From a virus (Duplodnaviria > Heunggongvirae > Uroviricota > Caudoviricetes), in the IMG/VR virus record IMGVR_UViG_3300031134_000466: a stretch of DNA of 64,000 nucleotides. One strand, written 5' to 3'. Shown here piece by piece: positions 23,434-62,312 of this stretch; the first letter of the stretch is position 1, and every line of letters begins with the position of its first letter. The notes beneath the pieces were generated by a model. The model was given only the letters and a program-made list of their open reading frames with translations, was not told the DNA's origin and made no database searches. A program made the position numbers and the translations under genes.

Positions 23434-24246
23434 ATGTGCAAACGCAAACCATACCCTCGTTGCAGCTACCATGCTCGCATCAAACTTGAAGCTGCAGAAA
23501 AGTCTGGTGATCTTGAACGCATCAAGCTTGCAAGAAGGAACTATTTCACTTCATTAGCTGGTATTGCTGACCTCAAAGCTCAGGGTAAAGATGCATTAGC
23601 TGCAAAATATGAGACTCGTAGAGCAAATCTCATTGCTCAAGCTGAACGTGAGACTAACCTCCGCAAGACACCCCTGGTTTTGGCGTTGGATGTAGACAAC
23701 ACCAGTGGTGACTTCACAGAATCCATTCGTAACCATGTCATGAAGACACAAGGACTTACTCCTGAACAGGCTGAAACACTTCTTCCTAGCCCTCCAACTC
23801 ACTACTCTTTCGTAGACTCAGGCTGGTTCACTGACGTTAACTCATTCCTGGATGCTTTCCATTCAGCGGAAGAGAATGGTGTTTACTCCAAGATGAAAGC
23901 TTTTGACGGAGTAAGCAAGACTCTTCGCACTTTGGTCAGTAATCGTGACGTTGAAGTTCGTGTTGTGACGGCCCGTGGTAACAGATGGAATGAAGAGACC
24001 CGTCAGTGGTTGCGTCGTCATCGTATTCCTTTCACTTCCATCACTCACACTGAGGACAAAGAGAAAGTCCCAGGTATCGATGTGTACATTGATGACTCTG
24101 ACAAGCAGATTAACACTCTGCAGAAGAACGGTAAGACAGTTATTGCGTTCGAGAATGCATACAACGCAACTGTTCCTTCTAAGTATCGTGTAAAGAAGTG
24201 GAAAGAAGTGCCGGCAGTTCTGAAACTCATCGCACAAGCCAAATAA
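23434..24246 (+). CDS. HAD-superfamily phosphatase carrying the N-terminal Cys-KP-RCS-H module shared with the three ADP-ribosyltransferases
   Basis: N-term MCKRKPYPRCSYHA; HAD motif I LDVDNT, motif II VVTARG, motif IV YIDDSD. Confidence 0.7.
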   Translation: MCKRKPYPRCSYHARIKLEAAEKSGDLERIKLARRNYFTSLAGIADLKAQGKDALAAKYETRRANLIAQAERETNLRKTPLVLALDVDNTSGDFTESIRNHVMKTQGLTPEQAETLLPSPPTHYSFVDSGWFTDVNSFLDAFHSAEENGVYSKMKAFDGVSKTLRTLVSNRDVEVRVVTARGNRWNEETRQWLRRHRIPFTSITHTEDKEKVPGIDVYIDDSDKQINTLQKNGKTVIAFENAYNATVPSKYRVKKWKEVPAVLKLIAQAK

Positions 24247-26371: not shown

Positions 26372-27676
26372 ATGGGAAAAATCATTGAAGAGACAATGCT
26401 TGTCATGGTTGACACAAAGAACAACAACAACAAGTTCTACCATGTCACATTGGATGATGCTAACGTCGTCACCAAGCGCTGGGGACGTGTAGGAGCTGAA
26501 GGAGCGAGTTCCGTCGAGACAACAGGCAAGATTGGTTACGAGCGAGCCATCAAGTCCAAAGAGAAAAAGGGCTACAAGGTCTCACCTATTGTTAGCACAG
26601 GTGTCACAGTCAAGAGTTCTGTCAACCACCTTGACGAAGTAGCTAAGAAGTTTCTGTCCAAGGACAGCGGAGACAGCCTTATCAGCAACCTCATTGACCG
26701 ACTCATCGCATCAAACCAGCACCAGATTATGGAGCAGTCCGGTGGTATGATTAAGATTACCGACGACGGAACCGTAAAGACCGCTCTCGGTGTTGTTGAC
26801 CTTTGCTCCATCAACTCTGCCCGAGACCTCATTGGTGAGATGCAGAAGAAGAAAACAGGGCAGACCAAGCTCCTGGAAGATTACCTCACCCTCATTCCTC
26901 AGAACATTGGGTACCGTCGTGGTTGGGAAGAGGACTTCCTGAAGACGGAAAACTTTGCCAAGCAGATGGACTTCTTGAAGCAGCTTGAGGATTCTGTGCA
27001 GTGGCGAAACACCACCGCACAGGTCACCACAGATGACGAAGACAAGTTCGACATCGATGCTCACAAAGACCTGTTCCGCATGAACCTTGCGAAGATTTCC
27101 GACAGCGGAAAAGACTTCGACCGTATCAACAAGATGTTTAAAGAAACACGCAACAACATGCACACATCACGTAACCTCAAACTTGTGAACGTGTATGCAG
27201 TGGAAGATGTCAAGGGCAAGGAAGCTTACGAAGCTGCTCAGAAGAAGTATGGAAACGTACGTGAACTCTGGCACGGAACAAAAGCCTCCAATGTTCTCTC
27301 CATTCTCACAAAGGGATTGTTCGTGCCTAACGCAGGTAGCGGTATCCCTGTGACAGGAAGAATGTTCGGTGATGGTGTCTACTTCAGTGACCAGAGCACC
27401 AAAAGCTTGAACTACGCCAACGGTTACTGGGATGGTTCACGCACCAGCCAGAACTGTTTCATGCTTCTGAACGATGTTGTCATGGGTCATGAGTACCGCC
27501 CTCAGCGTTGGGACTACAGCTCTCTCCGTCAGGCACACAAGGGCGTTGGAACTTCAGGTAAGCCTTACCAGTCCATCAGCGTTCGTGGTGGAACCTGTAA
27601 CGTTCGAAACAACGAAATGATTATTTGGAACACTGACCAGGTGGCTGTACGTTACCTCTGCGAATTTGGTAGCTAA
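26372..27676 (+). CDS. Poly(ADP-ribose) polymerase (PARP)-like protein: WGR domain + helical regulatory region + catalytic domain with H-Y-E triad
   Basis: WGR motif KFYHVTL...VVTKRWGRVGAEG...KKGYKV; catalytic LWHGTKASNVLSIL (His), GVYFSDQSTKS (Tyr), YANGY, NEMIIWN (Glu) in PARP order. Confidence 0.85.
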   Translation: MGKIIEETMLVMVDTKNNNNKFYHVTLDDANVVTKRWGRVGAEGASSVETTGKIGYERAIKSKEKKGYKVSPIVSTGVTVKSSVNHLDEVAKKFLSKDSGDSLISNLIDRLIASNQHQIMEQSGGMIKITDDGTVKTALGVVDLCSINSARDLIGEMQKKKTGQTKLLEDYLTLIPQNIGYRRGWEEDFLKTENFAKQMDFLKQLEDSVQWRNTTAQVTTDDEDKFDIDAHKDLFRMNLAKISDSGKDFDRINKMFKETRNNMHTSRNLKLVNVYAVEDVKGKEAYEAAQKKYGNVRELWHGTKASNVLSILTKGLFVPNAGSGIPVTGRMFGDGVYFSDQSTKSLNYANGYWDGSRTSQNCFMLLNDVVMGHEYRPQRWDYSSLRQAHKGVGTSGKPYQSISVRGGTCNVRNNEMIIWNTDQVAVRYLCEFGS

Positions 27677-28538: not shown

Positions 28539-29579
28539 ATGACCACTGCTACTAAATGTGCCAAACCAAAAGGGGTATATTGCCGTTTGCACAACCCTGA
28601 ACCTCGTGGGTATGCTTCTGCATCAGAAGCGTTAAATAAAGCAGAGCAGGACTTCAACAAAGCCAACCCGATCAAATCTTCTTCTCCTGGTGTTTCTTTT
28701 CATAAAAACGGTGAGACTCGCACATTGCACAAAAGTGTTCCAGAGAACATTGCTGACCATATTGCTTTGAATCAAGAACAACTGTCTCACTTGTCAGACA
28801 TGCAGAAGAAAGCTTTGAACGGTTACACCGGCTTTGCTGCAGGTGTTTGCAATAGTGTGTTGTTAGCAAAAGAATTCGCTTATGAGTATTACGAAGATGC
28901 CCCTCTATGGAAAGAAGCCCCAGGAGGAGCGTGTGACTTTGTTTCTCGTGAAGATTTAGTTGACTACATGGAAACAATGGATGGTATCCTTGCTTCCCGC
29001 CAGGAACAATCCCGAGTTCTATACCGTGGTATTCCTATTTACTCAGAACTGCATGACGAGATTGGTAATGGCATAGGTAAAAAGCTGCCTTTCGCTGATG
29101 CTACTGGCTTAGCAGAGGGTTTGAGTGAATATTACAAGCCTGGTACTGTCATTAAGCATGACCATTACTTGTCCACAACAGCATCAGCGTATTATGCAGC
29201 TGACCGTACAGACAATTCCATCGGGACAAAAAAGAGCTATTACGATAGCAATGATGTACCAGTCGGTATTGTCTTTGAGCTGAAAACCAATGCTGGTTTG
29301 GATGTTACAGCTGCAGCTCGTCATCATTCTTATGAACGTGAAGTGGTGTTACCTCGTGAAACTTACTTCAAAGTTGTCAACGTGGACGTGAATCCACAAG
29401 CTTATGACACTGTTTCAGGATTCGATACGCTCAACCATCCTGAGGAGCGAGAGCAGAAAACTTTCACTCGCTTAGCTGCTGTTGTTCAGATGGTCGAAGT
29501 AGACAAAAACGGCAAAGAAATAACAGGTACTGCACCTCATAATCCAGAGAGAAAAATCAGCGACATCATTCCTGGATGA
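28539..29579 (+). CDS. Mono-ADP-ribosyltransferase (R-S-E class) with N-terminal Cys-KP-C-H module
   Basis: N-term KCAKPKGVYCRLH; Arg motif VLYRGI, Ser-Thr motif YLSTTAS, catalytic YEREVVLPRETYFKVV (E-x-E). Confidence 0.7.
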   Translation: MTTATKCAKPKGVYCRLHNPEPRGYASASEALNKAEQDFNKANPIKSSSPGVSFHKNGETRTLHKSVPENIADHIALNQEQLSHLSDMQKKALNGYTGFAAGVCNSVLLAKEFAYEYYEDAPLWKEAPGGACDFVSREDLVDYMETMDGILASRQEQSRVLYRGIPIYSELHDEIGNGIGKKLPFADATGLAEGLSEYYKPGTVIKHDHYLSTTASAYYAADRTDNSIGTKKSYYDSNDVPVGIVFELKTNAGLDVTAAARHHSYEREVVLPRETYFKVVNVDVNPQAYDTVSGFDTLNHPEEREQKTFTRLAAVVQMVEVDKNGKEITGTAPHNPERKISDIIPG

Positions 29580-30499: not shown

Positions 30500-31465
30500 A
30501 TGTGCTACCCCAAACCTGGTCCTCGCTGTTCAGCTCATGCTGCAGTTAAACTGGCGACTGTAAAACTCGCTTCTACCAGCGGTAGTCAAGATTTTGCCGA
30601 GTACTTAGCTCATCAGGAGCGTCTTGAAGAAGCTCAGCTGGAGTATGACATCACGCCAGCAGGTTTGAAAGATTTACAGGATTTAGTGGGTCAACGAAAT
30701 GACCCTGACGCTGAGCTCCGTTATTCCAAAGCTAAAGCCCTGAGAGCAAAGAAGTTGGCTTTGTTGCATGAAGACCAGAAACAAGAGCAAGGTCATACTC
30801 TTGCAAGGGTTCAAGGGGTAAATGAAGATTTTTGTTCTGATGAAATTGTTCGTTCTAACAAAGATGCTGGAATCACATCCGCAGCTTTAGTAGCTGAAGC
30901 TGAACCGTGGTTTAATCAGTTGAACGATGATGAACTTTCTCAAATGCACTGGATGACCGACTATGGTTCAATGGAAGCTAATACGCACATCGCAGGAACC
31001 AATGACCATAAACGTTTTGGTGGTCTATTCTCTGCAGAGAACTTGGAATCTCGTATGGTTCAAGTTGACTCGGCTTTGAGTAAGTTTGAGTCACATCATG
31101 ATGAAGTTGTCTACAGGGGCTTTCGTGAAGGCTCTCTTCCCTCTGCTATGGCAAACAACTACCGGGTATCAGATGATGTGAAGCAAGCTGCAGTTCTGAA
31201 ATCTTTCACCGTAGGTGAAGTCTACAAGTCTGATTTCTACATGCCAACTTCTGTACAGCCTGAAGAGGCTGCTCGTTTTGCTGATTTCGGTTGCGTCATG
31301 GAAATCAAAACCCGCAAAGCTGCTCCTGTATCTGCCATTTCTGAAGTTCCCCGTGAGTCAGAAAAACTGATTGGTCGTAACAGTGAATTCAAAGTCGTGG
31401 CAATCAAAGAGAACATCATGTACGGCATTAAGAGAATGACTGTTGTTCAGTTAGAGCAACTCTAA
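30500..31465 (+). CDS. Mono-ADP-ribosyltransferase (R-S-E class) with N-terminal MCYPKPGPRCSAHA module
   Basis: Arg motif VVYRGF, Ser-Thr motif YMPTSV, catalytic PRESEKLIGRNSEFKVV (E-x-E). Confidence 0.7.
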   Translation: MCYPKPGPRCSAHAAVKLATVKLASTSGSQDFAEYLAHQERLEEAQLEYDITPAGLKDLQDLVGQRNDPDAELRYSKAKALRAKKLALLHEDQKQEQGHTLARVQGVNEDFCSDEIVRSNKDAGITSAALVAEAEPWFNQLNDDELSQMHWMTDYGSMEANTHIAGTNDHKRFGGLFSAENLESRMVQVDSALSKFESHHDEVVYRGFREGSLPSAMANNYRVSDDVKQAAVLKSFTVGEVYKSDFYMPTSVQPEEAARFADFGCVMEIKTRKAAPVSAISEVPRESEKLIGRNSEFKVVAIKENIMYGIKRMTVVQLEQL

Positions 31466-35979: not shown

Positions 35980-36441
35980 TTAATACTCTGTACGCAGCTG
36001 ATACTCGCCCCAAGTCGTGAAAGGCTGAACAGAATTGTCCAGGATAATTCGTTCAGCAACATCACCAGATGCAAGCTTCTCATAAAATGCTGCATCGTCA
36101 AAACCAGCATTCGCCGCATCATAACGGTCAGCAGAAAACACAATACGGTCAACACGAGACCATAAAGCAGCACCTAAACACATAGGGCAAGGTTCACAGG
36201 ATGAATAAAGAACACATCCTTCCAGGTTGAACACTTTAGCCTTGGCACAAGCAGCCCTAATAGCATTCACTTCCGCATGAGCGGTAGGGTCAATCGTGGT
36301 GGTGACAGAGTTTCCCGCAGCAACCGTGCTGCCGTTAGGGAAAAGGATTACAGCCCCAAAAGGTCCACCATTGCCGCTTTCCACGTTCTTTACAGCTGTA
36401 TCAATAGCAAGCTTAAGATAGTCAGCGTCGTTCATATTCAA
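35980..36441 (-). CDS. CDA-fold nucleoside/nucleotide deaminase (TadA/guanine-deaminase-like)
   Basis: HAEVNAIR and CEPCPMCLGA zinc-binding motifs. Confidence 0.8.
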   Translation of the reverse strand: MNMNDADYLKLAIDTAVKNVESGNGGPFGAVILFPNGSTVAAGNSVTTTIDPTAHAEVNAIRAACAKAKVFNLEGCVLYSSCEPCPMCLGAALWSRVDRIVFSADRYDAANAGFDDAAFYEKLASGDVAERIILDNSVQPFTTWGEYQLRTEY

Positions 36442-36526: not shown

Positions 36527-37519
36527 ATGCTTACAGTCTCCTCTTCCCTGAAAAGCTATAAAGCGTCAGGGTTATTCTTTGGGAGTCTACTACTCATACT
36601 GGCAGCGTTTGCTCTACTCCCTAAGAAGAGCTTCACTGGGTTGCTGAATGATTTCTTCATGCTTAGCTTCAGTGTGATTGTTGAATCTGTGCCGTTCTTG
36701 ATCCTGGGTAGCGTCCTTGCTGCACTGGTGCAAATTTTTGTCTCGTTTACCTGGCTGACAAGAATACTCCCTAACAACCCTCACCTGAAACGCTTCTTCC
36801 TGTCATTGTTCGGTGTTTTCTTACCGGTATGCGAATGCGGGAACATTCCTATGGCTCGGGGACTGATGCTAAAAGGATTCACTGTGTCAGAAGCAATGGT
36901 CTTTTTGCTCGCTGCACCCATTGTTAACCCTGTCACCATAATCACAACCCATCAAGCTTTTGGATGGGATTCAGGCATCCTCATTTGCCGTATTTTAGGT
37001 GGACTTGCCATAGCGAACTTCATTGGCTGGCTCTTCTCCCGCCAACAAGATGCAACCCAGTTTCTCACCCCTTCATTCGAACATTCATGTCGAGTTGAAG
37101 CAGGCGTTGTAGAAAAGAAAAGCATTTTCAACATAGCAAACAAAACAGCCTCGGAGCTGATCCTTCTATTCCCAGCTTTGATCGTGGGTGCAGGCATTGC
37201 TGCGTTCATTCAAGTGATTGTACCGAGGAGTACATTGTTAGCCATTGGTGAAGACCCAGTACTCTCAGTTCTTGTTATGCTCCTACTGGGAATCATCGTA
37301 GCAATATGTTCAAACGTGGATTCATTCTTTGCTCTATCATTCGCTAGCACTTTCACGAATGGAAGCCTCATCACATTCCTTCTGGCAGGTCCCTTAGTCG
37401 ATGTGAAGATGATCGCATTGATGAAATCCACTTTCACATCCAGAGCTGTCCTATATATTGTACTACTGGTGGTATGTGCCAGCGTTAGCATTGGGTTAGG
37501 AGTCAATCTTGTCTCTTGA
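36527..37519 (+). CDS. DUF318-family (ArsP-like) permease
   Basis: 8 TM helices and the family's VCECGNIP Cys-x-Cys motif in a loop. Confidence 0.65.
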   Translation: MLTVSSSLKSYKASGLFFGSLLLILAAFALLPKKSFTGLLNDFFMLSFSVIVESVPFLILGSVLAALVQIFVSFTWLTRILPNNPHLKRFFLSLFGVFLPVCECGNIPMARGLMLKGFTVSEAMVFLLAAPIVNPVTIITTHQAFGWDSGILICRILGGLAIANFIGWLFSRQQDATQFLTPSFEHSCRVEAGVVEKKSIFNIANKTASELILLFPALIVGAGIAAFIQVIVPRSTLLAIGEDPVLSVLVMLLLGIIVAICSNVDSFFALSFASTFTNGSLITFLLAGPLVDVKMIALMKSTFTSRAVLYIVLLVVCASVSIGLGVNLVS

Positions 37520-38231
37520 TAAGATAACTAAAACCCTACAATGGGTGACACTTGCAGTAACTATGAGCTTCATCCTCTGGCTCATATTCACAGGTAAGCT
37601 GTCATTGTTCATTCATCCTCGATATAACCTCTTCACCGCCATCATGGTTATTCTGGGAGCAGCTTTAGTGACAATAAGCTTTACTAAGAAGCAACCTTCA
37701 GGACATGAACATCAGCATGATGAGAAAAAGAACCCAAAACAGAAGCTGGTGATTGCTGCAATCGTTTTGGTAGCCACTTCCAGCATGTTCGTTGTCGCCC
37801 CAGGAGCTTTATCTTCCACCTTTGCTTCAGATAAAGTTGTCAACGGAGGGGTAGTGTCCACAAATCAAGACCTTGCTAATCCTGAAGGAGACTACCAAGA
37901 TTTTACTGTCAAAGACTGGGCTTTACTTGCCGAATCTGACATCAAGTATGAGTTCACAGGAAAAGAAGTCGATTTAGTAGGATTTGTTGTTCCCATTGAT
38001 GAAAACAATTTCTACTTGTCTCGATTTGTTGTGTACTGCTGTGCTGTTGACGCCCAACCAGTTGGTGTGCCAGTACATCAAGAGAATTGGCAGCAAGATT
38101 TCCAAGAAAATGATTGGGTTGAAGTGAAAGGGGAGTTCAGTGATACTACAAGTAACAGCGGTTATCAAGCTGAGCTCATCCCTGTTCGTGTTACTAAAAC
38201 TGTAGAACCAGAGGCTCCTTATGAGTACTGA
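37509..38231 (+). CDS. TIGR03943-like membrane protein, conserved partner of DUF318 permeases
   Basis: Two N-terminal TM helices, His-rich loop, C-terminal VVYCCAVDAQP Cys pair; 11-nt overlap with permease gene. Confidence 0.5.
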   Translation: MSLDKITKTLQWVTLAVTMSFILWLIFTGKLSLFIHPRYNLFTAIMVILGAALVTISFTKKQPSGHEHQHDEKKNPKQKLVIAAIVLVATSSMFVVAPGALSSTFASDKVVNGGVVSTNQDLANPEGDYQDFTVKDWALLAESDIKYEFTGKEVDLVGFVVPIDENNFYLSRFVVYCCAVDAQPVGVPVHQENWQQDFQENDWVEVKGEFSDTTSNSGYQAELIPVRVTKTVEPEAPYEY

Positions 38232-39276
38232 ACAAACCAAATCTCAGCATAGTCTAAACCGCAGTATAGTGGTGTCATTGTTACTCGTCCTGGCGTTAGT
38301 TGCTGCTTTGTTCGTCAAAGATGGCATCGCTCAGCAAACAAAAGTAAACAATGTTGACGGCTACTATTTAGCTGATTCCTCTTTCTACCATCAAAAAGGA
38401 ACCAACCCAGGTGAGGAAGTCTACTCTGGTCCAGAGTCAATTCTTTCTTTTTCATTGACTCATTCACATGCGTTACTCGTTACCTCTGCCCAGAAGATAC
38501 TACTTGTAGATTTAGCTTCAGGTAAATCTGAGGACATCACTACTCCTGGTTGTTCTGTACTTCAGACCAGCTCTGCATTCGACAGGTATTTTGTGTACCT
38601 AAACTCTTGCGATACAGACACAACAGCCCAACGTTTTGTTTCATATGACACTCAAACGAATAAGGAAACAACAACAGAAGTACAAGCATCCTCACAATGG
38701 CAAGTGAACCCTAAAACAGGAAACGTTGTATACCAGGCTGGTTTGACCAGTACTGTTTATTCAGGAAACATGGATAAGTCTGGCCAATGGCAACCGTTTG
38801 TGCAGTTAGGTCAGATGGGTTATCTCGGAGGTTTCTACAACAAAGGGAACACTTTGTTCTTATGGGGAACCGAAGCTGATGCTTCAACCCCAATCTCGTA
38901 TAACCTAAACGACTTGAATACTGTGAAGCTAGTTTTACCTGAAGCTGCAGATTCTAAAACACAGATAGCGTCAGGAACAACTGCTATTGATAGAACCAGT
39001 ATTTTGTGGGCTGTGACCGCTTATTCTCCAGAAGAAGATGCATATTACGAGTACGTCATCAAAGACACAAATCTTGGAGCTACTTTACTGGTTGACTTAT
39101 CTACTCTCGGGTATACGTTAGGTAACCGATTATCGTATGATGCAAAGAATGATGTAGTTGCAATTCCGGTGACACAGTACAACGGCGGGGATGTGTCTAC
39201 ACTGTTTGCTGATGCAGAAACAGGAAAAATTCTTTACCAGTTGCAGTTCACTACAGCGTTTCAATTTGCACCTTAA
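38221..39276 (+). CDS. N-terminally anchored extracytoplasmic protein, unknown function
   Basis: Single N-terminal TM (IVVSLLLVLALVAALFV); overlaps upstream gene by 11 nt. Confidence 0.45.
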   Translation: MSTEQTKSQHSLNRSIVVSLLLVLALVAALFVKDGIAQQTKVNNVDGYYLADSSFYHQKGTNPGEEVYSGPESILSFSLTHSHALLVTSAQKILLVDLASGKSEDITTPGCSVLQTSSAFDRYFVYLNSCDTDTTAQRFVSYDTQTNKETTTEVQASSQWQVNPKTGNVVYQAGLTSTVYSGNMDKSGQWQPFVQLGQMGYLGGFYNKGNTLFLWGTEADASTPISYNLNDLNTVKLVLPEAADSKTQIASGTTAIDRTSILWAVTAYSPEEDAYYEYVIKDTNLGATLLVDLSTLGYTLGNRLSYDAKNDVVAIPVTQYNGGDVSTLFADAETGKILYQLQFTTAFQFAP

Positions 39277-39277
39277 A

Positions 39278-39326
39278 TTATGAAAGCCGACCCGACAGAA
39301 ATTCTTTGTCAGGTCGGCTTTCATAA
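39278..39326. terminator. 15-bp stem-loop between convergent genes
   Basis: ttatgaaagccgacc ... ggtcggctttcataa. Confidence 0.5.
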
Positions 39327-39327
39327 T

Positions 39328-40449
39328 TCAGTCAGCAGTTTTTCCGTTCAAGTTCCAGAATGGCTTCTCAAACTCAGGCTGAATCATTTTCCAGATGATG
39401 TCAGAGATTTTCTTCTCAGACCTGGTATCAAAATGACCTCCGCTGTGACGAGAGAATAACAAACCAGTAATGCGTTTGTCTTCTTTCTGTACAGCTGCAG
39501 CGTAGTCCTTCTGAGTGTATCCTTCAGGAAGTTCAGAAAGAATACGGTTGTAAGTTTCCTCAACTGTTGCACGCAATTCAGCATGCTCTGCAAGTAGTCG
39601 GTCACGAGTTGTTTCGACATACTCAACGAACTCATCAGGGAGACCAACAATCCATGAAGTGAAGTCACCGTCAGCTACAAGCAGCTCCCAGATGCGACGC
39701 GAAGAAGCACCTGTGATGACACGGTGAAGCTGAACGTAGTCATCCTGTTTCACTTTCACTCGAACATCACTATCCAGGAAGTGAACAACAACGCCTTCTT
39801 TGTTCTCACGACCAGGAGCGGCCAAAGCTTCAGTAAGGCTGTTGTATTCAAACTGCTCAACCTTCAACCAAGTCCATTCATCAACCTGTGATGCTGGTAC
39901 AGAGCGACCTGTTGCTGTGTTCACTCGGGCAATCAAGATGAGGTCATCCAAATCACCGTAGTTAACAACGATACGGTTTGTAGGGTAGATGATTTCCCAG
40001 ATGTAAGTTTCACCAGCAAGTGGCTCCCATTTTCCGTCGTACAGCTCCTGGTAACGTGCTGTGGCATGCAGAGCCTGCTCAGAGCTGAATGAACCTCGTG
40101 TGGAGATGTTCAGTCGACCAGTTTCAGGGTTTACATATGAAACACCCATAGAACCATCTGCTTTGTCTGTGACAACGATAGGTCCAGTCAGTGCATCCTG
40201 AGGAACATCTGGTTCGCCGTGGTTAAAGAACTTACCAAGAGGGCGGGAGACAATCTCCTGGGTGGAACCGTCAACGATAAGTCCTCGTGAAGCTAATGTT
40301 GCAGCGTTCCAGGCTCGGTCAAACTGGCATACCTGTGAGTAGTCAAAGATAGCCAGGTCAAGCGTAGGGTGAACCTGACGATTGATGTGCTTGTTCTGGA
40401 ATTCAGCTGCCCAAAGTTCAGCAGGAGCGATATCGTAAATGTGTACCAT
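39328..40449 (-). CDS. ATP-dependent RNA ligase (Rnl family), paralog 1
   Basis: Nucleotidyltransferase motif I TDKADGSMG (KxDG), same order of downstream motifs as ORF 54122. Confidence 0.7.
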   Translation of the reverse strand: MVHIYDIAPAELWAAEFQNKHINRQVHPTLDLAIFDYSQVCQFDRAWNAATLASRGLIVDGSTQEIVSRPLGKFFNHGEPDVPQDALTGPIVVTDKADGSMGVSYVNPETGRLNISTRGSFSSEQALHATARYQELYDGKWEPLAGETYIWEIIYPTNRIVVNYGDLDDLILIARVNTATGRSVPASQVDEWTWLKVEQFEYNSLTEALAAPGRENKEGVVVHFLDSDVRVKVKQDDYVQLHRVITGASSRRIWELLVADGDFTSWIVGLPDEFVEYVETTRDRLLAEHAELRATVEETYNRILSELPEGYTQKDYAAAVQKEDKRITGLLFSRHSGGHFDTRSEKKISDIIWKMIQPEFEKPFWNLNGKTAD

Positions 40450-40813: not shown

Positions 40814-41173
40814 TTGGTTATGACGTTTATGAATACTACAACACTATGGCGCCCAGTAGGACCAAAAGAACTGGAACTAATAGCTCAGACTGGATTTACC
40901 CATTTCCCACCCAGATTACCAGAACAACCCATTTTTTATCCTGTGCTGAATCAGGAATACGCAGTAAAGATTGCTAAAGAATGGAACGTAAAACATGATG
41001 GTGCTGGTTATGTGAGCGAATTCCAAGTAGAAACCAGCTTTTTGTCTAATTACCCTATCCAGCAAGCTGGAGGTAGAACCATTCTCGAATATTGGATACC
41101 TGCAGAGGATTTAGATGCTTTCAACGATTCGATAGTGGGTATTATTAAAATCGTCAACACTTTTCTTTCTTGA
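40814..41173 (+). CDS. Hypothetical protein
   Basis: ORF only. Confidence 0.45.
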   Translation: MVMTFMNTTTLWRPVGPKELELIAQTGFTHFPPRLPEQPIFYPVLNQEYAVKIAKEWNVKHDGAGYVSEFQVETSFLSNYPIQQAGGRTILEYWIPAEDLDAFNDSIVGIIKIVNTFLS

Positions 41174-42792: not shown

Positions 42793-44685
<1,893 letters not shown>

Positions 44686-50800: not shown

Positions 50801-51706
50801 ATGTCACAGATAATGCGGATTCACCGTGGAGTGCAAGGCTCTGGTAAATCCACAGAAGCCATCCGTTGGGTGAACCAGGACCCGTTAAACCGTGCCCGTG
50901 TGAACCGTGATGACATTCGTCTCAGCCAGTTCGGCTCCTACGAGCTTCCTCAGGAACTCGAAGTTGCTGTTACCAAAGTAGAGCATGCCATCATCACCGC
51001 ACTTCTTGCTGCACGCAAAAGTGTTGTTGTTGACAATGTGAACCTGAAAGCCAAGTACGTTAAAGAGTACCTGCTTATTGCGGAGAAAGCCAACGTACCT
51101 GTTGTGCATCAGGACTTCCCTGTGGAGTTGGAGACAGCTCTTGCTCGTAACGCTGCTCGTGACCGTAAAGTCCCTGCACATGTGATTGAGACAACATTCA
51201 AGCGTTACATTCAGAGTGGCAAGTTCCCTCCGTTCCCCGTACTTGACTACGAAGCCGCTGCAGCAGGAATCTATGTTCCTGATGAGACTCTGCCTAAAGC
51301 TATCCTTTTGGATGTTGACGGCACAGCCATGAAGATGGGTTCACATCGTGGACCGTTTGACTGGCACAAAGTCATTGATGACGAGCCTAACCCGCCTGTT
51401 GTTGAAACAGTAAAAGCTTTGCATGCTCAGGGCTACAAAGTTGTTGTCATGTCTGGTCGTGATGAAGTCTGCAAAACAGACACGTTACTTTCTCTGGAAG
51501 TAGCTGGTGTTCCTGTGGATGAAATCTACATGAGACCCCACAACGATTACCGTAAAGACAACATCATCAAGCGTGAACTTTTTGATGCTCACATTCGGGA
51601 GCGTTTCAACATCCTGTTAGCTTTGGATGACCGGAACCAGGTTGTGGACGCTTACCGTCGTGAGCTGGGTCTTCCTGTCTTTCAGGTTGACTACGGAGAC
51701 TTCTAA
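50801..51706 (+). CDS. Polynucleotide 5'-kinase/3'-phosphatase (T4 Pnkp architecture)
   Basis: N-terminal P-loop GVQGSGKST and kinase core, C-terminal HAD phosphatase LLDVDGT ... MSGRDE ... LDDRNQ; ATG 50801 with AGGAAA RBS. Confidence 0.8.
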   Translation: MSQIMRIHRGVQGSGKSTEAIRWVNQDPLNRARVNRDDIRLSQFGSYELPQELEVAVTKVEHAIITALLAARKSVVVDNVNLKAKYVKEYLLIAEKANVPVVHQDFPVELETALARNAARDRKVPAHVIETTFKRYIQSGKFPPFPVLDYEAAAAGIYVPDETLPKAILLDVDGTAMKMGSHRGPFDWHKVIDDEPNPPVVETVKALHAQGYKVVVMSGRDEVCKTDTLLSLEVAGVPVDEIYMRPHNDYRKDNIIKRELFDAHIRERFNILLALDDRNQVVDAYRRELGLPVFQVDYGDF

Positions 51707-51757: not shown

Positions 51758-52729
51758 TTAAATTTCTCGCAGCTGCACAATTGTCAGTTCAGTTGCTTCA
51801 CCTTTTTTATTGACCCTTTTGACTTTCACATCATTAGCAACAACTTCGAATTTTGCACCACGAGGAATGATGAACTCATACTCTCTTGGACCTTGCGATG
51901 AAATAGCTGTGATTGGGGCTCCACTTTTTGTAAGAATCTGTAAAGAAACATTGATGTTGTCTTTGGAAGGTAAATCTTGAGGATTCAAACTTGTCGATAA
52001 GAAGAATTTAGGTTCGTAAGTGCTACCAACAGGGAAATGTTTGTCGAGGTTTTGAGCGTCATCACTTGAATGATATCCTTTTTCATCATAAAGATGATGA
52101 CGGCGGTAAACCATCACGCCTTCTTCTGCTGGTTCGTGTTTAGCAAAAGCATCATCCAGGATAGTTACAGCTGCATCCAACGTTTCAGGTGCAACATTTT
52201 TTGCGTACGGATTTGTTGAAGCTGAAAGATGGCCGTTGATGTCAGCATAGCCATCTTCTGAATACCAGCGAAGAGTAGCTATTTCAGTATCATCCAGTTT
52301 GGCACTCCAGTTTTGGGAATCTGCCATGCTGTTCAACAGGTCAGCATGTTTGTAATGCATCTCTTCAAGAGTGTCACCAGTTTCGAAAAACGTCGGAGAA
52401 GTGTAAGCAGCTTTTTGTGCTTTTTTGTGGGTGATGACTTTACGATCCGCAACAGCAGCTAATCTTCTGGCTCGTTCTTGAGAAAGCGCTTCGTATTCTT
52501 CTGCATGCCATTCCTGCGTTGGATTCTTTTTGATCTGTCTTTCCAAAGACTTTAGATAAGCTGGTGTTAGTTTGTACTCTGCTTCAGCTTTTCTTCTTAC
52601 CGCTATTAGCTTCTCAAGCTCTGGGTCTTTGCGGTTGTCCATGAAAGCACTGAGAACCGCTTGATGAGCTTTAGCGTAGGTGGCTGCAGCATGAGCTGAA
52701 CAACGGGGACCAGGTTTTGGGTAACACAT
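51758..52729 (-). CDS. Mono-ADP-ribosyltransferase (R-S-E class) with N-terminal MCYPKPGPRCSAHA module
   Basis: Arg motif MVYRRH, classic STS motif FLSTSLN, catalytic PREYEFIIPRGAKFEVV (E-x-E); N-terminal 100 aa paralogous to ORF 30500. Confidence 0.7.
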   Translation of the reverse strand: MCYPKPGPRCSAHAAATYAKAHQAVLSAFMDNRKDPELEKLIAVRRKAEAEYKLTPAYLKSLERQIKKNPTQEWHAEEYEALSQERARRLAAVADRKVITHKKAQKAAYTSPTFFETGDTLEEMHYKHADLLNSMADSQNWSAKLDDTEIATLRWYSEDGYADINGHLSASTNPYAKNVAPETLDAAVTILDDAFAKHEPAEEGVMVYRRHHLYDEKGYHSSDDAQNLDKHFPVGSTYEPKFFLSTSLNPQDLPSKDNINVSLQILTKSGAPITAISSQGPREYEFIIPRGAKFEVVANDVKVKRVNKKGEATELTIVQLREI

Positions 52730-53146: not shown

Positions 53147-54028
53147 ATGACTACAAATTTAGGTTTCAGAGCTGAGGTCTCATACGACGCAGTGAAAGAT
53201 TTGACTCTCATGAGTTCATCATCTTCAGACTTCTCTTCTCCTCTTAACTTTGCCCTCACACGAGGTTCTGACGAGGACAAAGCCGTCAGGGCTCTCCTCG
53301 AAGACCAGGGACGAGTAGAATTCGTCAAGTCAGCGGTTTCTTTGAACAACCTTTCCCAGGTAGGTTCTTTCGGTGTTAGAACAGACGGTAATCCTTCCCG
53401 AGCTGACCTGGGTGTTCACAAGAACCTCACTATCGCAGGTAAAGATGGTTCAGGTGTTCTGAACTTCGTCAGAAACTATCTTCTTTGGGCTTACGCTACA
53501 AACACTCGAATCTATGCTGTGAACGCTCCAGCTGACATGTACGGTGCTGTGAATTACTTGCGTACTGACAAACTGGTTCGTATCGACTCAGGAGATGAGC
53601 CGAACATTGATTCCATCTGGAGTCAGTACGATGCTGATGTTGCTGCTGGTCGTCCTGTGCTTGTGTTGGTGAACAGCATTGGTGATATCGAAGACCAGGA
53701 TGAGGTGGTTGCAAGTTTCCTTGCCCATGTTGACACACGCAAGTTCGAAGTTTACGCTCTTTCTTTCTCAACATTCCAGGAAGAGCTTCCAGAAGACACT
53801 CATTACGAGAACTTCTTCTGGCGAGTTGGTGTTGACGCTGAGCACACTACAGGTTTCATTGGTGACACTCTTCCTGAGATTGCATCTTACATGATGAAAG
53901 AACATGTAGGAATTCCTCATGAGAACCCTCGTGGCGTGCTGTGGTTAAACAGAAATGCTGAGCGTTACGAACGAGTTATCACCTATGTGGTGCCTCGTCG
54001 TTTCTGGGAAGACAGCCTGAACTTCTGA
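53147..54028 (+). CDS. Hypothetical protein
   Basis: ORF only. Confidence 0.5.
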   Translation: MTTNLGFRAEVSYDAVKDLTLMSSSSSDFSSPLNFALTRGSDEDKAVRALLEDQGRVEFVKSAVSLNNLSQVGSFGVRTDGNPSRADLGVHKNLTIAGKDGSGVLNFVRNYLLWAYATNTRIYAVNAPADMYGAVNYLRTDKLVRIDSGDEPNIDSIWSQYDADVAAGRPVLVLVNSIGDIEDQDEVVASFLAHVDTRKFEVYALSFSTFQEELPEDTHYENFFWRVGVDAEHTTGFIGDTLPEIASYMMKEHVGIPHENPRGVLWLNRNAERYERVITYVVPRRFWEDSLNF

Positions 54029-54037
54029 TTTCAGACA

Positions 54038-54080
54038 ATTGAGGGACCTGTGCTTGTAATTAAAGTGCAGGTCCCTCAAT
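54038..54080 (+). terminator. 13-bp stem-loop followed by T5 (intrinsic terminator)
   Basis: attgagggacctg ... caggtccctcaat tttttg. Confidence 0.55.
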
Positions 54081-54121
54081 TTTTTGTATTCTGCTGTCTG
54101 TTTCTTTGTTAGTAATAGGGC

Positions 54122-55363
54122 ATGTCAACTACAAGAAAACCTCCTTATCATCACAGCGATGGTACAAACTGCTGGACTAAAGATTGTTCGATCAGAGGCC
54201 GTGAAGATACAGAAAAAGCTGCTTTCTTCAAGCAAGTAGAAACAGCTGCTGAGACTGTTGTTCCAACCAATGAATTGCCTCCTCTGTCAGCTTTTCAGAA
54301 AGCCTATGATGATGGTCGCATTGAGTGCAGCCGCCACCCTGAACATCCTTATGTGACTTACAAGTATTCCAGAACAACTCAGTTTGCTTCTGACTGGGAT
54401 GATGTGACCTTAGCGTCTCGTGGTGTCATCTTCAATGAGGAGACAGGCGAGATTGTTGCTCGTCCATTTGCTAAGTTCTTCAACCATAACGAACCGTCAG
54501 TTCCCAGAGACAAATTACATGGCCGTATTAGTGTAACTGACAAGCTGGACGGTTCTTTAGGAATTGGTTATGTTGATGAGAACGGTAAGTTCAACATTGC
54601 AACCTCTGGAAGCTTTATCTCTGAACAGGCAAAACGTTCTACAGAGCTCTATCATGAGCGTTATGAAGGCAACTGGAAGCCAAATCCTAAGTTGACCTAC
54701 ATGTGGGAAATCATCTACCCAGAAAATCGTGTCGTGGTCAACTATGGCGATGAAGATGACTTGCATCTCATCGGTGCTGTCAACAAACGAACTGGTAAAT
54801 CAGTTCCGTTGCGTGACATCAAAGAATGGAAGTGGAAAAGAGCTGAAGAGTACAAAGACTTCTCCTCCTTGGATGCTGTTCTTCACTCTCCTGAAAGAGA
54901 AAACCGTGAAGGTTTCATTGTTCATTACATCGATACTGATACCCGCGTGAAATACAAGCATGCAGATTATCTTGAGCTCCATCGTAACCGTACTGGCGTG
55001 ACTTCCAAAACTATCTGGCGTAAAATGCGTATGGGTGAAGATATGGCAGGTTGGAAAGAGAACATGCCTGAAGAGTTCAGTGAGTTCGTATCCACTCGTC
55101 AAGCTAAAATCACTGCCGGATATAACAAAGAAATTGCCCAAATTACTGATGAGCATGGCACTTTCAAAGCAACTCTTCCTGCTGGTTATGACCGTAAGAC
55201 TTTTGCTACCACTTTGAAAAACTCACCTCTTGTACCAGCCGAAAACAAAGCTTTCGTCATGAACCTTGAGTTCAACGGCAGTGCTGTTGGAAGTGTTGTT
55301 CAATCTCATAAGATTTGGGACCGTGTGAAACCTGAGGACGAGAACACCTTGTGGAACATGTAA
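54122..55363 (+). CDS. ATP-dependent RNA ligase (Rnl family), paralog 2
   Basis: Motif I TDKLDGSLG; collinear with ORF 39328 (SRG..F..E....ARP.AKFFNH.EP, GSF.SEQA, YMWEIIYPENRVVVNYGD, REG.VVH). Confidence 0.7.
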   Translation: MSTTRKPPYHHSDGTNCWTKDCSIRGREDTEKAAFFKQVETAAETVVPTNELPPLSAFQKAYDDGRIECSRHPEHPYVTYKYSRTTQFASDWDDVTLASRGVIFNEETGEIVARPFAKFFNHNEPSVPRDKLHGRISVTDKLDGSLGIGYVDENGKFNIATSGSFISEQAKRSTELYHERYEGNWKPNPKLTYMWEIIYPENRVVVNYGDEDDLHLIGAVNKRTGKSVPLRDIKEWKWKRAEEYKDFSSLDAVLHSPERENREGFIVHYIDTDTRVKYKHADYLELHRNRTGVTSKTIWRKMRMGEDMAGWKENMPEEFSEFVSTRQAKITAGYNKEIAQITDEHGTFKATLPAGYDRKTFATTLKNSPLVPAENKAFVMNLEFNGSAVGSVVQSHKIWDRVKPEDENTLWNM

Positions 55364-55746: not shown

Positions 55747-56412
55747 ATGAAGAACACATACGGAATTCTCGGCGGATATGGGGCGGTAGCCACCCTACAT
55801 CTCCAGCAGCTGCTCGTGAAGCGAGTCCTCAGCACTGGACAGTACGCTGATATTGCCTTCCCTCGTATGGTAATTTCCAATCTGCCTGAAGACATCATCA
55901 ATGCTGAAGGACATATCAGCAGCCTTGGTAGCCTGCGGACTGAACTTGGTAAAACAGCTCCTCTATTCCAAGGAGCCACAGATGTTTATGTCATTTGTAA
56001 CACCTTCCATGTCGAAGAAGAGTTCATGCAGCGAGTCTTCGCTAACAAACTACATTCTGTTCCGGCTTTAACCAGTCAAGCTGTCGTAGATGCTGGATAC
56101 TCCAAACCTCTTATCGTAGGTTCCAAGCTGACTTCTCAGGATAACCTGTACAGTCATACAGCTTACACCTCAACTAACATGTTTGCGGATGAGCTAATCA
56201 CTGCTGGAATGAAGTACCAGACATCTCACTCTCAGCTGGCAGATGTCATAGCTGCTGCCAAACAGGCTAGCTCAGACTGCATTGTTTTAGGTTGCACAGA
56301 TTTGTCCGTGATGGCTGACACTCTCCGAACCATGACTGCACTTCCCGTAATCGACTCCGTTGAAGCAGTCGCCAACCATATTTACAACTCCCATACGAAA
56401 GATGAATCGTGA
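55747..56412 (+). CDS. Asp/Glu/hydantoin racemase-family protein
   Basis: N-terminal ILGGYGAVATLH (GGMG-type motif) and second-half VLGCTDLS (GCTE-type) with the two catalytic-Cys-region positions. Confidence 0.65.
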   Translation: MKNTYGILGGYGAVATLHLQQLLVKRVLSTGQYADIAFPRMVISNLPEDIINAEGHISSLGSLRTELGKTAPLFQGATDVYVICNTFHVEEEFMQRVFANKLHSVPALTSQAVVDAGYSKPLIVGSKLTSQDNLYSHTAYTSTNMFADELITAGMKYQTSHSQLADVIAAAKQASSDCIVLGCTDLSVMADTLRTMTALPVIDSVEAVANHIYNSHTKDES

Positions 56413-57374
56413 AAGTCTACAACGACACAGTAACCATGACTGCAGAGCTGGCTCAGACCTTAGAGCAATTGAGAGCTGTGCGGGCTTTTGACGCTACAGA
56501 ATGGATTGAGCGTAAGGTTGTCCTAATCAACCAGTACTTCGCTCAGAACAAGCTCTCAGGGGCTGTAGTAGGTGTTTCTGGTGGCATCGACTCAGCTGTA
56601 GCCCTTTCACTTCTTGTCAAAGCATCCCAGCAAGACAACAGCCCAATTCAGAAGATTGTCCCTCTTCTACTTCCTGCTCTTTCTTACGAAGGTGCAACTA
56701 ACCAAGACGGGGCAGTTCAGCAGGCTACTGACCTATGCCAGAACCTTGGACTGAAGCCAGCTGTTTTCACTAAGCTCACATCTCTTTCCCAAGTGATTAC
56801 TTCTGAACTGGAAGACATTCTGGACATCAAATCAACAGACTGGGCTAAAGGACAGCTAGTGGCTTACACCAGAACCCCAGTCCTGTACAACACCTGCTCA
56901 ATCCTTACTGACGCCGGCTACCCTGCACTGGTTGTAGGAACCACAAACCTTTCCGAAGGTGGATACCTCGGTTATGTCGGAAAAGCTTCAGATGGTATGG
57001 TTGACCTGCAAGTAATTTCTGATTTGTACAAGTCAGAAGTGTACAAAGTCGCAGCTTTACTTGAAGTTCCTGAAAGCGTTATGAAAGCTACTCCTACAGG
57101 GGACATGTACGACGGTCGTGAAGATGAAACAGTTTTCGGAGCTTCTTACGACTTCGTAGAGCTGTTTCATCTATGGCTACAGGCACGCAGCGTCCCATTG
57201 AAACTTCTTCGAGATGCCCACTTTGTCACAGGAGCTAAAAACCTGCAAAAACTGCACGACTACAACGCACATAAGTACACCTACGGAACTCCATCCATTC
57301 ACCTGGACATTATGAACGCAGCAATCCCAAACGGATGGAACAATCAGCCTTGGAGGCCCCAGAATGGCAACTAA
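56409..57374 (+). CDS. Divergent NAD+ synthetase (NadE)-like PP-loop amidotransferase
   Basis: PP-loop VGVSGGIDSAVA; GTTNLSEGGYLGYVGKASDGMVDLQVISDLYKSEVYKVA matches NadE GT.N.SE...GY.TKYGDG..D..P; 4-nt overlap with upstream gene. Confidence 0.7.
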   Translation: MKVYNDTVTMTAELAQTLEQLRAVRAFDATEWIERKVVLINQYFAQNKLSGAVVGVSGGIDSAVALSLLVKASQQDNSPIQKIVPLLLPALSYEGATNQDGAVQQATDLCQNLGLKPAVFTKLTSLSQVITSELEDILDIKSTDWAKGQLVAYTRTPVLYNTCSILTDAGYPALVVGTTNLSEGGYLGYVGKASDGMVDLQVISDLYKSEVYKVAALLEVPESVMKATPTGDMYDGREDETVFGASYDFVELFHLWLQARSVPLKLLRDAHFVTGAKNLQKLHDYNAHKYTYGTPSIHLDIMNAAIPNGWNNQPWRPQNGN

Positions 57375-58104
57375 ATTCGTAAACCAAGTCAACTTCGAAA
57401 TCCCTACTGTTGCTCACACAGTTCAAGTGAGACCGTTCCCTGAACTTGACCGTACAGCGGTAGTGATTCCTGAACTCGTCCCTGCCGAGGAAAAAGTCAG
57501 TATCATGGCAGCGTTGGAAGACTCCAACTGGCAGCCAGTGTCAGTGACAGGAATGTCAGGAAACTGGAAAGAAGGTGACCCTATTGGTTCTTACCGTGCT
57601 TCCAACTACACTCCTGAGTATGCTGAAGTTCTGTGGAACAGAATCAAACACGGTTTCCCTACTGTACGCACATTCACAGATGCTGATAACACCGACTTCG
57701 ATGGTCATGAGCTGTGGGAACCCATTGGCGTGTCACCTCTTCTTCGATTCATCAAATATGAAGAAGGCGGCTGGCTTGTAGTTCATTACGATGCTCCGTA
57801 TGTCGAATCAGAAGATGTTCGCACACTCCAAAGCCTTGTCGTATATCTGGAACACCCAGGTGAACTTCACGGAGGAGCAACCCGCTACCTTCATGACCCT
57901 CAGGCTCATCTTCCTGTTACTCAGCGTGAACTCAACGACGAATACCGTGCTGCTGAAGAAGATGAAGTGAGACTCCGCTTCGCTCCTGAAGATGGAACAG
58001 CTGTAGTCTTCGACCACCGCCTTCTGCATGACGCTGAAAAGGTCACAGGAACTGGCACAAAAACAATCATTCGAACAGACATTATGTACAGGAAAGTACG
58101 ATGA
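57364..58104 (+). CDS. 2OG-Fe(II) oxygenase-superfamily-like protein
   Basis: HYDAPY (HxD) and downstream His (LEHPGELHGG) with distal RxS-like region; weak call. Confidence 0.4.
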   Translation: MATKFVNQVNFEIPTVAHTVQVRPFPELDRTAVVIPELVPAEEKVSIMAALEDSNWQPVSVTGMSGNWKEGDPIGSYRASNYTPEYAEVLWNRIKHGFPTVRTFTDADNTDFDGHELWEPIGVSPLLRFIKYEEGGWLVVHYDAPYVESEDVRTLQSLVVYLEHPGELHGGATRYLHDPQAHLPVTQRELNDEYRAAEEDEVRLRFAPEDGTAVVFDHRLLHDAEKVTGTGTKTIIRTDIMYRKVR

Positions 58105-59624: not shown

Positions 59625-59641
59625 GATGATAGACATGATGC

Positions 59642-60238
59642 ATGCTTGAAATACTTACAGCGGTAGGTCTTGCTTTAGCGGCAGGGTTGAACGCTTACAT
59701 TCCTCTGATTGCTGTCAGTTTGTTATCAAAGTTCACTGATTTTTTCACTCTTCCAGGAAACTGGTCATGGATGGAAGACAACTGGACATTAGCGATCTTG
59801 ATTGCTTTAGCTTTAGTAGAGTTCTTTGCTGACAAAATAGCTGCAGTTGACTCGTTGAATGATGTCATCCAAACAGCAGTCCGTCCAACATCAGGCGGAT
59901 TGCTGTTTGCTGCAGGTACCCATGTAACAGATGTTCCTGTGACTCAGATTAGTAATTTTGTGAGTTCTCCAGGCTTTCCTATGTTCATCATTGGTTTGAC
60001 TGTTGCTTTGCTTCCTCATTTGATGAAGATGTTCATCAGGCCGCTTATTAACGCAACGATGAGTGGAATGGTGACACCCATTGTCAGTTTTGGTGAAAAC
60101 ATTCTTACAGTAGGTTTGGTTGCTATGGCTATATTCATTCCAGTGCTGGTACCAGTAGCAGTAATACTGGTCATTGTTATAGGAGTACGGATTTTCCGAA
60201 ACCTCACCGCGAAAAAGAGTAAAACAGCAACAGCCTGA
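59642..60238 (+). CDS. DUF4126-like membrane protein
   Basis: LALAAGLNAYIPLIAVSLL ... LVEFFADKIAAVDSLNDVIQTAVRPTSGGL matches the DUF4126 pattern from memory. Confidence 0.45.
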   Translation: MLEILTAVGLALAAGLNAYIPLIAVSLLSKFTDFFTLPGNWSWMEDNWTLAILIALALVEFFADKIAAVDSLNDVIQTAVRPTSGGLLFAAGTHVTDVPVTQISNFVSSPGFPMFIIGLTVALLPHLMKMFIRPLINATMSGMVTPIVSFGENILTVGLVAMAIFIPVLVPVAVILVIVIGVRIFRNLTAKKSKTATA

Positions 60239-60330
60239 AGTTGTTCCGATAGACTGAGTTAGCATGCTTAGCATGTCTGCCCTGGCAGTAAACCAGTTTA
60301 TTCGATTTAGACAACAAAGGAGTACCTATC

Positions 60331-61548: not shown

Positions 61549-61590
61549 TACCTGCCAAACACACAGGTTATCTCATGGTAGAATAGTTAA

Positions 61591-62238
61591 ATGAACACCA
61601 TCCAGTTCCACGCCCAACACGGTGAAGACCCAAACACTGTAACTATTCAGCCCAGTGAAAGTAGCAAGTTTGCTGACATTATCAACAATATAGGTAAAGC
61701 TTTTCTTCAGCCTGCCTGGAATCAAGACATCCTTCGTAAAGCAATAGCAGCAGAGAACTCTCTTTCGCAAGAGACAAGAGATATAGTGCGCTGGGCTGAA
61801 CAGTTCACCACTAAGTTCAATAACAAGGAATTCAACCTTGTTGTAGAAGAGCAGGTATTGGATAGTTACAGTATCAACTTGAACACAGTGCAAAGCGTTG
61901 GCAACAACAGTATGAAACTCCTTGCCAGGCTTCACCATGCGACCCGAATGTGGATTGCTGTAGAAGATACAGACTGGGTAGCAGATATCATCCAAGATGC
62001 CCACCCCGACATCTTTCAGAAGGACAAAGGCTGGCTGGATGTCATCAATCTTCTCAGACAGAATCATGCTGTCCCTGTCATTGTCACCAGTAATAACAAC
62101 AGTTGGAATTGGAACACAGATAAGGCTGAAGAGTTGACGTTTGAACAGCAGCTCACTCCGCACACATGGGAAAGTTACATGTATGGGCACGGATATGATG
62201 CATTGGCAGTCGTTCGAAAACTTTCTCAAAGGAAATAG
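61591..62238 (+). CDS. Hypothetical protein
   Basis: ORF only. Confidence 0.45.
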
Positions 62239-62312
62239 TCACAAAAACGTGCTTTTTCGTCAATATGACGATATACTGTAATAAGAATGGTCTAAGGAAG
62301 GAAACCCGTATC

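Follow-up and report, generated by a model that had tools for sequence, protein, structure and literature searches.

Why should one replicon carry two RNA ligases of the same family together with an enzyme that heals broken RNA ends? The question was raised by a stretch of DNA of 64,000 nucleotides (nt), IMG/VR record IMGVR_UViG_3300031134_000466, referred to here as the window. It encodes a short-form Rnl1-like RNA ligase of 373 amino acids (aa) (LigA, 39328-40449, minus strand), a long-form Rnl1-like RNA ligase of 413 aa (LigB, 54122-55363, plus strand), and a T4-type polynucleotide 5′-kinase/3′-phosphatase of 301 aa (Pnkp, 50801-51706, plus strand). These three open reading frames (ORFs) had been singled out in an earlier reading made from the letters alone (the sequence-only reading), and all were recovered at the coordinates that it gave. 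We regard it as likely, judging from sequence comparisons, that together they heal and seal broken RNA, as a repair module on a giant phage-like replicon associated with Actinomycetota.

Identity of the ligases and the kinase-phosphatase

LigA and LigB were 41% identical across 375 aligned columns (E = 4e-101), a similarity that, at this E value, is far beyond chance and that agrees with the earlier description of the two as collinear and approximately 40% identical. The KxDG motifs were found as quoted (VTDKADGSMG in LigA and VTDKLDGSLG in LigB), and YIWEIIYPTNRIVVNYGD in LigA and YMWEIIYPENRVVVNYGD in LigB were also present. The motif given as REG.VVH was approximate, the actual strings being KEGVVVH and REGFIVH. 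In LigA, the adenylyltransferase domain occupies approximately aa 1-250 (39700-40449) and is followed by a helical C-terminal domain (approximately aa 251-373); in LigB, the core extends over aa 49-413. Both proteins passed the gathering score of the Pfam family PF09511 (RNA_lig_T4_1; 28.3 bits), with 45.1 bits for LigA and 54.7 bits for LigB. The solved relatives found by sequence were T4 Rnl1 entries only, matched across the adenylyltransferase domain, over which identity to T4-type Rnl1 was 22-28%.

The AlphaFold model of LigA (predicted local distance difference test, pLDDT, 92) was compared with solved structures, with two scores per entry. T4 Rnl1 was the best match (5e-18 and 23.8). Lower values were obtained for the fungal Trl1 ligase domains (3e-9 and 18.9), archaeal Rnl3 (about 2e-7 and 15.7), T4 Rnl2 (about 5e-5 and 11.8), and Naegleria Rnl5 (about 7e-6 and 11.7). 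DNA ligases gave 1e-3 or weaker and 9.8 or less, and capping enzymes were not ranked by the first score and reached 6.7 or less by the second. The modeled fold of LigA is nearest to T4 Rnl1 and stands far from DNA ligases and from capping enzymes, the two assignments that the sequence-only reading had named as fatal to its own. The LigB model had a pLDDT of 88.6. The family placement upheld the call of both genes as Rnl-type: PF09511, structure, and catalytic residues all pointed to Rnl1-like enzymes.

In a family alignment of 125 sequences, including one T4-type Rnl1, the equivalents of T4 Arg54, Lys75, Lys99, Asp101, Gly102, Glu159, Glu227, Gly228, Lys240, and Lys242 were invariant (125/125), and the equivalent of T4 Phe77 was Phe in 124 sequences and Tyr in one. 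Eight catalytic positions were re-checked in an enlarged set of 207 sequences and were again invariant (207/207). In LigA numbering, K96/D98/G99, E152, E218/G219, and K232/K234 were shared by LigA, LigB, and all 125 members. Motifs I (KxDG), III, IV, and V, including the AMP-accepting lysine, were present in both ligases, as were the residues of the Rnl1-type N-terminal sub-domain that mark membership in the family (equivalents of T4 Arg54, Lys75, and Phe77). All residues with an established essential role in T4 Rnl1 are kept in LigA.

The Pnkp gene combines a P-loop kinase (approximately aa 1-150) with a HAD DxDxT phosphatase (aa 165-301), which is the T4 layout that had been claimed for it; the Pfam scores were 65 bits for AAA_33 and 163 bits for HAD_PNKP. 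Motif residues were located at GVQGSGKS (10-17), NRDDIR (35-40), DVDGT (171-175), SGR (218), and DDR (276), and the kinase does not stand without its 3′-phosphatase residues, as the last three motifs were all intact. The protein aligned end to end with Capnocytophaga Pnkp1 (PDB 4xrp, 2e-47) and with T4 Pnkp (1ltq, 1e-31). A GGA-rich spacer precedes the ATG at 50801, and this start agrees with the 301-aa gene call in related contigs. By its domains and motifs, ORF 50801-51706 is a complete predicted T4-type Pnkp.

Linkage of ligase and Pnkp and the proposed repair

At all of the 80 actinobacterial reference-genome loci, a LigA-like ligase was followed by Pnkp on the same strand. The loci came mainly from Actinoplanes, Dactylosporangium, Micromonospora, Streptomyces, and Arthrobacter, with one additional metagenome-assembled genome each of Acidimicrobiia and Limnocylindrales. 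Their ligases were 38-46% identical to LigA and their Pnkp proteins were 35-44% identical to the window Pnkp; at nearly all loci, no more than about 100 nt separated the start of the Pnkp match from the end of the ligase match. The pair was also found in Arthrobacter phage Bauer (gp70/gp71), Streptomyces phage Braelyn (gp183/gp187, amid tRNA genes), and Bacillus phage Sophrita (gp164/gp165). In related metagenomic elements, Pnkp was 2-8 kb from the ligase. In Cluster E mycobacteriophages, the pair has been annotated as tRNA repair and counter-defence genes (PMC5511906). In Actinomycetota and their phages, T4-type Pnkp and an Rnl1-like ligase form a unit of two genes that is near-universal, and the conservation of this unit is the strongest evidence that ligase and Pnkp cooperate in heal-and-seal RNA repair. 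Together with the intact phosphatase, the linkage supports the RNA-repair interpretation that the sequence-only reading had advanced.

From this pattern we infer substrates, an anti-defence role, and a division of labour between the ligases as follows. The damage would be to RNA, most plausibly in the anticodon loop of a tRNA, where cleavage by a host ribotoxin or an abortive-infection nuclease would leave 2′,3′-cyclic-phosphate/3′-phosphate and 5′-OH ends. In the healing step, the HAD (DxDxT) domain of Pnkp would strip the 3′ phosphate and the P-loop kinase would phosphorylate the 5′ end; T4 Pnkp is known to heal 2′,3′-cyclic phosphate ends via an Asp165 intermediate (PMC3592404). In the sealing step, an Rnl1-type ligase would join the 3′-OH and 5′-PO4 ends through ligase-AMP and AppRNA intermediates. 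LigA, of the short form that stands in an operon with Pnkp across actinobacteria, would be the canonical sealing enzyme. LigB would be a retained specialised paralogue, in which motif Ia and an N-terminal module probably alter the broken RNA that is targeted or the site of delivery. The three genes had been likened to a T4 trio that repairs tRNAs, which is imprecise: T4 uses a duo, Pnkp and Rnl1. The second T4 ligase, Rnl2, belongs to a different family from Rnl1.

Divergence of the second ligase and rival explanations

The position of T4 Lys119 (motif Ia) is Arg118 in LigA and Ser in LigB. Within the enlarged set, a basic residue was kept in 101 of 107 short forms, and 83 of 100 long forms had neither Arg nor Lys (A, S, G, or M). 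The basic residue of motif Ia that characterizes the Rnl1 family is conservatively retained in LigA and absent from LigB. A neighbour-joining tree placed LigA among short forms with Arg and LigB in a monophyletic long-form clade with Ser or Ala (the B clade); the only other position specific to this clade was a Val-to-Ile change in motif IV. T4 Lys119 is reported by Wang, Ho, Pei and Shuman (JBC 2003) to be essential for overall ligation and to be implicated in RNA adenylylation (step 2).

LigB also differs at its N-terminus, which begins with a Cys/His module (PPYHHSDGTNCWTKDCSIRG; 54122-54190, plus strand) and continues with a disordered linker (aa 24-48; 54191-54265, plus strand; model pLDDT below 50). 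The module is conserved in B-type ligases (consensus APYxHxDGSNCWTKxCS) and was modeled as a small beta-hairpin (pLDDT 62-77). Pfam searches at E values up to 10 returned no match for the N-terminal Cys modules. None of the ligases of cultured phages in the collection had the B-type extension, and the B-type sequences were purely metagenomic, with none from a named organism. When LigB residues 1-36 served as the query of an exhaustive search, the same module appeared in related elements at the head of an ADP-ribosyltransferase (ART), a weak Fic match, a PolyA_pol/CCA-adding-type nucleotidyltransferase, and several unknown proteins; it also heads two proteins that are GNAT-like by eye. Two matches that resembled internal repeats (P0406 and P0408) were rejected as YD-repeat and low-complexity artefacts. 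In one metagenomic B-type ligase (P0400), a LAGLIDADG intein was inserted exactly in the KxDG adenylylation motif.

Both ligases were retained in four related elements. In the syntenic sister element (L180, 880 kb), the A-type ligase was 72%, Pnkp 74-75%, and the B-type ligase 74% identical to its window counterpart. One ligase of each type was present on a contig of 696,453 bp (P0008 and P0325) and on another of 695,487 bp (P0388 and P0326). Relative to L180, the ratio of nonsynonymous to synonymous substitution rates (dN/dS) was 0.13 for LigA, 0.08 for LigB, and 0.12 for DnaK, with dS saturated; the ratio for LigB was 0.03 in a close comparison. Both ligases are under purifying selection, and the duplication is neither recent nor decaying. 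The loss of the motif Ia basic residue, the gain of the N-terminal module, and the retention of both genes under purifying selection support functional divergence of LigA and LigB, and lend some support to the earlier suggestion that the two ligases differ in specificity.

A more specific reading, which we put forward tentatively and consider possible rather than probable, is that LigB represents an undescribed Rnl1-like subclade repurposed by a shared docking or delivery tag plus a changed active site. Because the basic residue of motif Ia is lost in its clade, LigB would act on an end chemistry other than that of LigA, or only on pre-activated ends. If the tag is common to a set of host-modifying and RNA-repair enzymes, virion packaging and tethering to a shared target such as the translation machinery are both possibilities. 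Co-retained Rnl1 paralogues that differ at one catalytic-site motif and by an N-terminal adaptor would provide a natural experiment on ligase specialisation, and a shared N-terminal tag is indicated on a set of effector and repair enzymes.

Several observations weigh against a heal-and-seal module on a phage-like replicon. We know of no host anticodon nuclease for this system, and the tRNA and Rfam scans of the window found no tRNA genes and no RNA families. The ancestral ligase-Pnkp operon is broken: LigA and Pnkp lie 10 kb apart, and the interval from Pnkp to LigB holds an ART on the opposite strand, an unknown ORF, and a terminator-like hairpin. With scores of 74 and 62 bits, the ligases remained below the cut-off of the NCBIfam T4 RnlA equivalog model TIGR02308 (242 bits), and they are best described as predicted Rnl1 family members that are not T4 RnlA equivalogs. 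What defines each Rnl family is the domain attached to the nucleotidyltransferase core (PMC6379707), and the C-terminal, specificity-determining domain is weakly supported as homologous to that of T4 Rnl1. No capsid or terminase genes were seen, the viral nature of the element is inferred, and the element was not recovered in the IMG/VR ligase search.

This last result would also suit a cellular origin: the replicon would be a chromosome, that of a very reduced actinobacterium, and the genes would mend the cell's RNAs when toxins or stress damage them. All 80 reference genomes have the ligase-Pnkp pair on the chromosome, where the operon of Actinoplanes, Micromonospora, Streptomyces, and Arthrobacter presumably serves self-repair, and the window contains cell-like genes (DnaK, 74% identical to that of Microbacteriaceae; signal peptidase; ArsP permease with DUF1980; an LPXTG protein; NadE; and an ABC ATPase). 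However, ribosomal, tRNA, aminoacyl-tRNA synthetase, and central-metabolism genes numbered zero both in the 64 kb and in about 100 kb of related loci, dnaK stands without its grpE-dnaJ partners, and phage-type genes are frequent (DNMK, YqaJ, MazG, NT5C, ARTs, and an intein). Relatives with T4 rIIB, rIIA-like, and T4 endonuclease V-type genes also speak against a cell, and we consider cellular self-repair rather unlikely.

The other two alternatives concern the chemistry rather than the carrier. RNase H, an EEP nuclease, and NucS are encoded 0.6-2.7 kb upstream of Pnkp and are syntenic in L180, and T4-type Pnkp acts on DNA ends too; with these enzymes and a distant WGR-PARP (poly(ADP-ribose) polymerase), Pnkp and one or both ligases might rejoin DNA or RNA-DNA nicks. 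Both ligases are nevertheless structurally Rnl1-like and remote from DNA ligases, and a related element encodes its own NAD-dependent DNA ligase. At the 80 bacterial loci, the pair occurred without these nucleases within 10 kb, and no ART, NucS, EEP nuclease, or second ligase was found within that distance at any of them, which speaks against a DNA-end role shared with nucleases and PARP. The PARP gene lies at a distance of 24 kb, conserved linkage was not seen, and nothing ties either ligase to it, which leaves the earlier idea of a ligase paired with PARP without backing; DNA-end processing as a whole appears very improbable. It is also improbable that one paralogue, most likely LigB, is mainly a non-ligase, by analogy with T4 gp63/Rnl1-like tail-fibre attachment, or serves a partial ligation pathway. 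T4-type Rnl1 genes are annotated "RNA ligase and tail fiber attachment catalyst," and the missing basic residue of the LigB clade fits such a role, but all other catalytic residues, including the AMP-accepting lysine, are invariant in LigB and its clade, which argues for retained nucleotidyl-transfer chemistry, and purifying selection is strong across the whole of LigB.

Carrier, neighbouring genes, and known systems

The carrier of the proposed heal-and-seal module is probably a giant phage-like replicon (~0.78 Mb) associated with Actinomycetota, and not a cell. The same element recurred as contigs of 776,559, 782,330, and 788,683 bp; related elements spanned 696-883 kb, and one B-type ligase cluster reached a 1.0-Mb contig. 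The best matches in the ligase search were about 46% identical in GTDB genomes, so that the species is not among them, and about 40% identical in IMG/VR; the nearer ligase relatives were on plainly phage-like contigs of 55-76 kb. One related contig of 696 kb carried a T4-type rIIB gene beside an rIIA-like GHKL ATPase, together with ribonucleotide reductase (RNR) alpha, NrdI, and an NAD-dependent DNA ligase, and another of 791 kb carried a Pyr_excise (T4 endonuclease V-type) gene and Nudix genes. The lone dnaK (42826-44685) encodes a protein 80% identical to the DnaKs on contigs of 828-883 kb, and its similarity to the Microbacteriaceae protein hints at the host lineage or at a captured host chaperone gene. 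An affiliation with Patescibacteria/Saccharibacteria, suggested by small contigs, pilin genes, and the LPXTG protein, was dropped in view of this DnaK and of the relatives with rIIB and endonuclease V-type genes. The largest huge-phage genome quoted is 735 kb (PMC7162821), a record that the 0.7-0.9 Mb carrier would exceed if it is viral.

The window also encodes an SNF2 helicase, a YqaJ-exonuclease fusion, RNR beta, a dCMP-type deaminase, MazG, NT5C, and an SPFH protein, and its NAD/ADP-ribose genes comprise WGR-PARP, two R-S-ExE ARTs, two NadE, and an NMNAT-like protein. This mix agrees with the conflict adaptations described for jumbo phages, namely RNA repair, NAD+ supply, ARTs, DNA modification, and surface modification (PMC7824862). 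The protein with WGR and PARP catalytic domains (26372-27676) has the architecture of a eukaryote-type poly(ADP-ribose) polymerase and is conserved in related elements. A 905-aa ORF (18430-21147) joins a dNMP-kinase-like N-terminus, a Hint/intein segment, and a C5 cytosine DNA methylase, and is probably an intein-interrupted methylase fused to a kinase. The YqaJ fusion (705 aa; 14395-16512, minus strand) combines a YqaJ-type recombination exonuclease with RNase_T/DnaQ-type exonuclease domains. An NAD-centred cluster 3′ of LigB (55747-63158) contains Asp/Glu racemase-like, NadE-like, 2OG-Fe(II) oxygenase, 507-aa NMNAT-like, DUF4126, and P-loop proteins and a second NadE; the arrangement recalls phage systems for NAD+ replenishment, and the NAD-consuming ARTs and PARP are nearby.

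Between Pnkp and LigB, the opposite-strand ART (51758-52729, minus strand; PF03496, 74.6 bits) has its R-S-ExE catalytic triad in YRR at 207, STS at 245, and EYE at 283. An ART adjoins Pnkp and the A-type ligase in one related locus (L003) and the B-type ligase in another (L181); the association may reflect only a shared host-takeover region. The N-terminal C-x7-C-x2-H module of this ART is an instance of a C-x7-C-[R/S]-x-H module, related to that of LigB, that heads both window ARTs, the NT5C nucleotidase, and ORF 28539 (window positions 23434-24246, 28539-29579, 30500-31465, and 51758-52729), and that recurs in related loci (L003, L169, and L173). The two window ARTs were 28% identical overall, and their first 15 residues (MCYPKPGPRCSAHAA) were identical. 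A zinc knuckle and a common targeting tag are two possible identities of the module.

Immediately 5′ of LigB is an unknown ORF of 293 aa (53147-54028, plus strand), for which Pfam, NCBIfam, PHROGs, and PADLOC gave no matches. Its syntenic orthologue in L180 was 42-43% identical (dN/dS 0.32), values that indicate a fast-evolving gene. PADLOC likewise had no match for LigA, LigB, Pnkp, or the ART between them. In the gap between this ORF and LigB, the consensus scan, and that scan only, found a terminator-like hairpin with a 19-bp stem and a T-run (54037-54081, plus strand), so that LigB would be a separate transcription unit if the hairpin functions as a terminator. An inverted repeat that was read from the sequence, and that was not among the results of the consensus terminator scan, lies between the convergent stop codons of ORF 38221-39276 and LigA (39277-39327) and probably terminates transcription in both directions. 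Sigma-70 promoter scans did not exceed shuffled expectation.

In L180 (7262-8849), the LigA orthologue, 72% identical, overlaps a downstream TadA-like deaminase gene. The window orthologue of this deaminase (35980-36441, minus strand) is 72% identical to it; its best NCBIfam match was tRNA adenosine-34 deaminase, with a score below cut-off. Between it and LigA lies a cassette of ArsP permease, DUF1980, and an unknown ORF (36527-39276, plus strand), which looks like an insertion. Upstream of LigA, a 119-aa ORF (40814-41173) had no family match and was 65% identical in L180.

Compared with known systems, the window resembles the T4 Pnkp and Rnl1 pathway in combining a bifunctional P-loop kinase/DxDxT phosphatase with an Rnl1-type ATP-dependent ligase; all essential Rnl1 positions are found in LigA, for which T4 Rnl1 was the best structural match. 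It differs in having two Rnl1-type paralogues, whereas T4 has Rnl1 and Rnl2, and in a replicon that is not T4-like. The rnl-pnkp pairs of actinobacteria and actinophages belong to the same ligase subfamily and the same Pnkp type, at the identities given above, but consist of one ligase directly adjoining Pnkp, whereas the window genes are dispersed, with a second divergent ligase and interleaved ART genes. Among solved structures, the window Pnkp was closest to Pnkp1 of the Capnocytophaga Pnkp1-Rnl-Hen1 complex (E = 2e-47); that complex has an Rnl4-type partner and Hen1, and Pfam scans of the window ORFs turned up no Hen1-type methyltransferase, which sets the window apart from it.

Jumbo phages can carry several RNA ligase paralogues each, which have been interpreted as nonredundant and which co-occur with PNK-HAD fusions, NAD+ salvage genes, and ARTs (PMC7824862). 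The published sets combine RtcB, Rnl1, and Rnl2, or several Rnl2 paralogues, whereas the window has two ligases of the Rnl1 type, one of them with a Cys/His module and a changed motif Ia. As a kit, the repair genes are known from T4, actinophages, and jumbo phages, and multiple ligase paralogues per phage are documented. What is new is a modest variant, the B-clade ligase, in which motif Ia is altered and an N-terminal module is shared with other proteins, together with the unusually large phage-like carrier; the larger prize may lie outside the repair genes, in a replicon of 0.7-0.9 Mb that is possibly phage-like.

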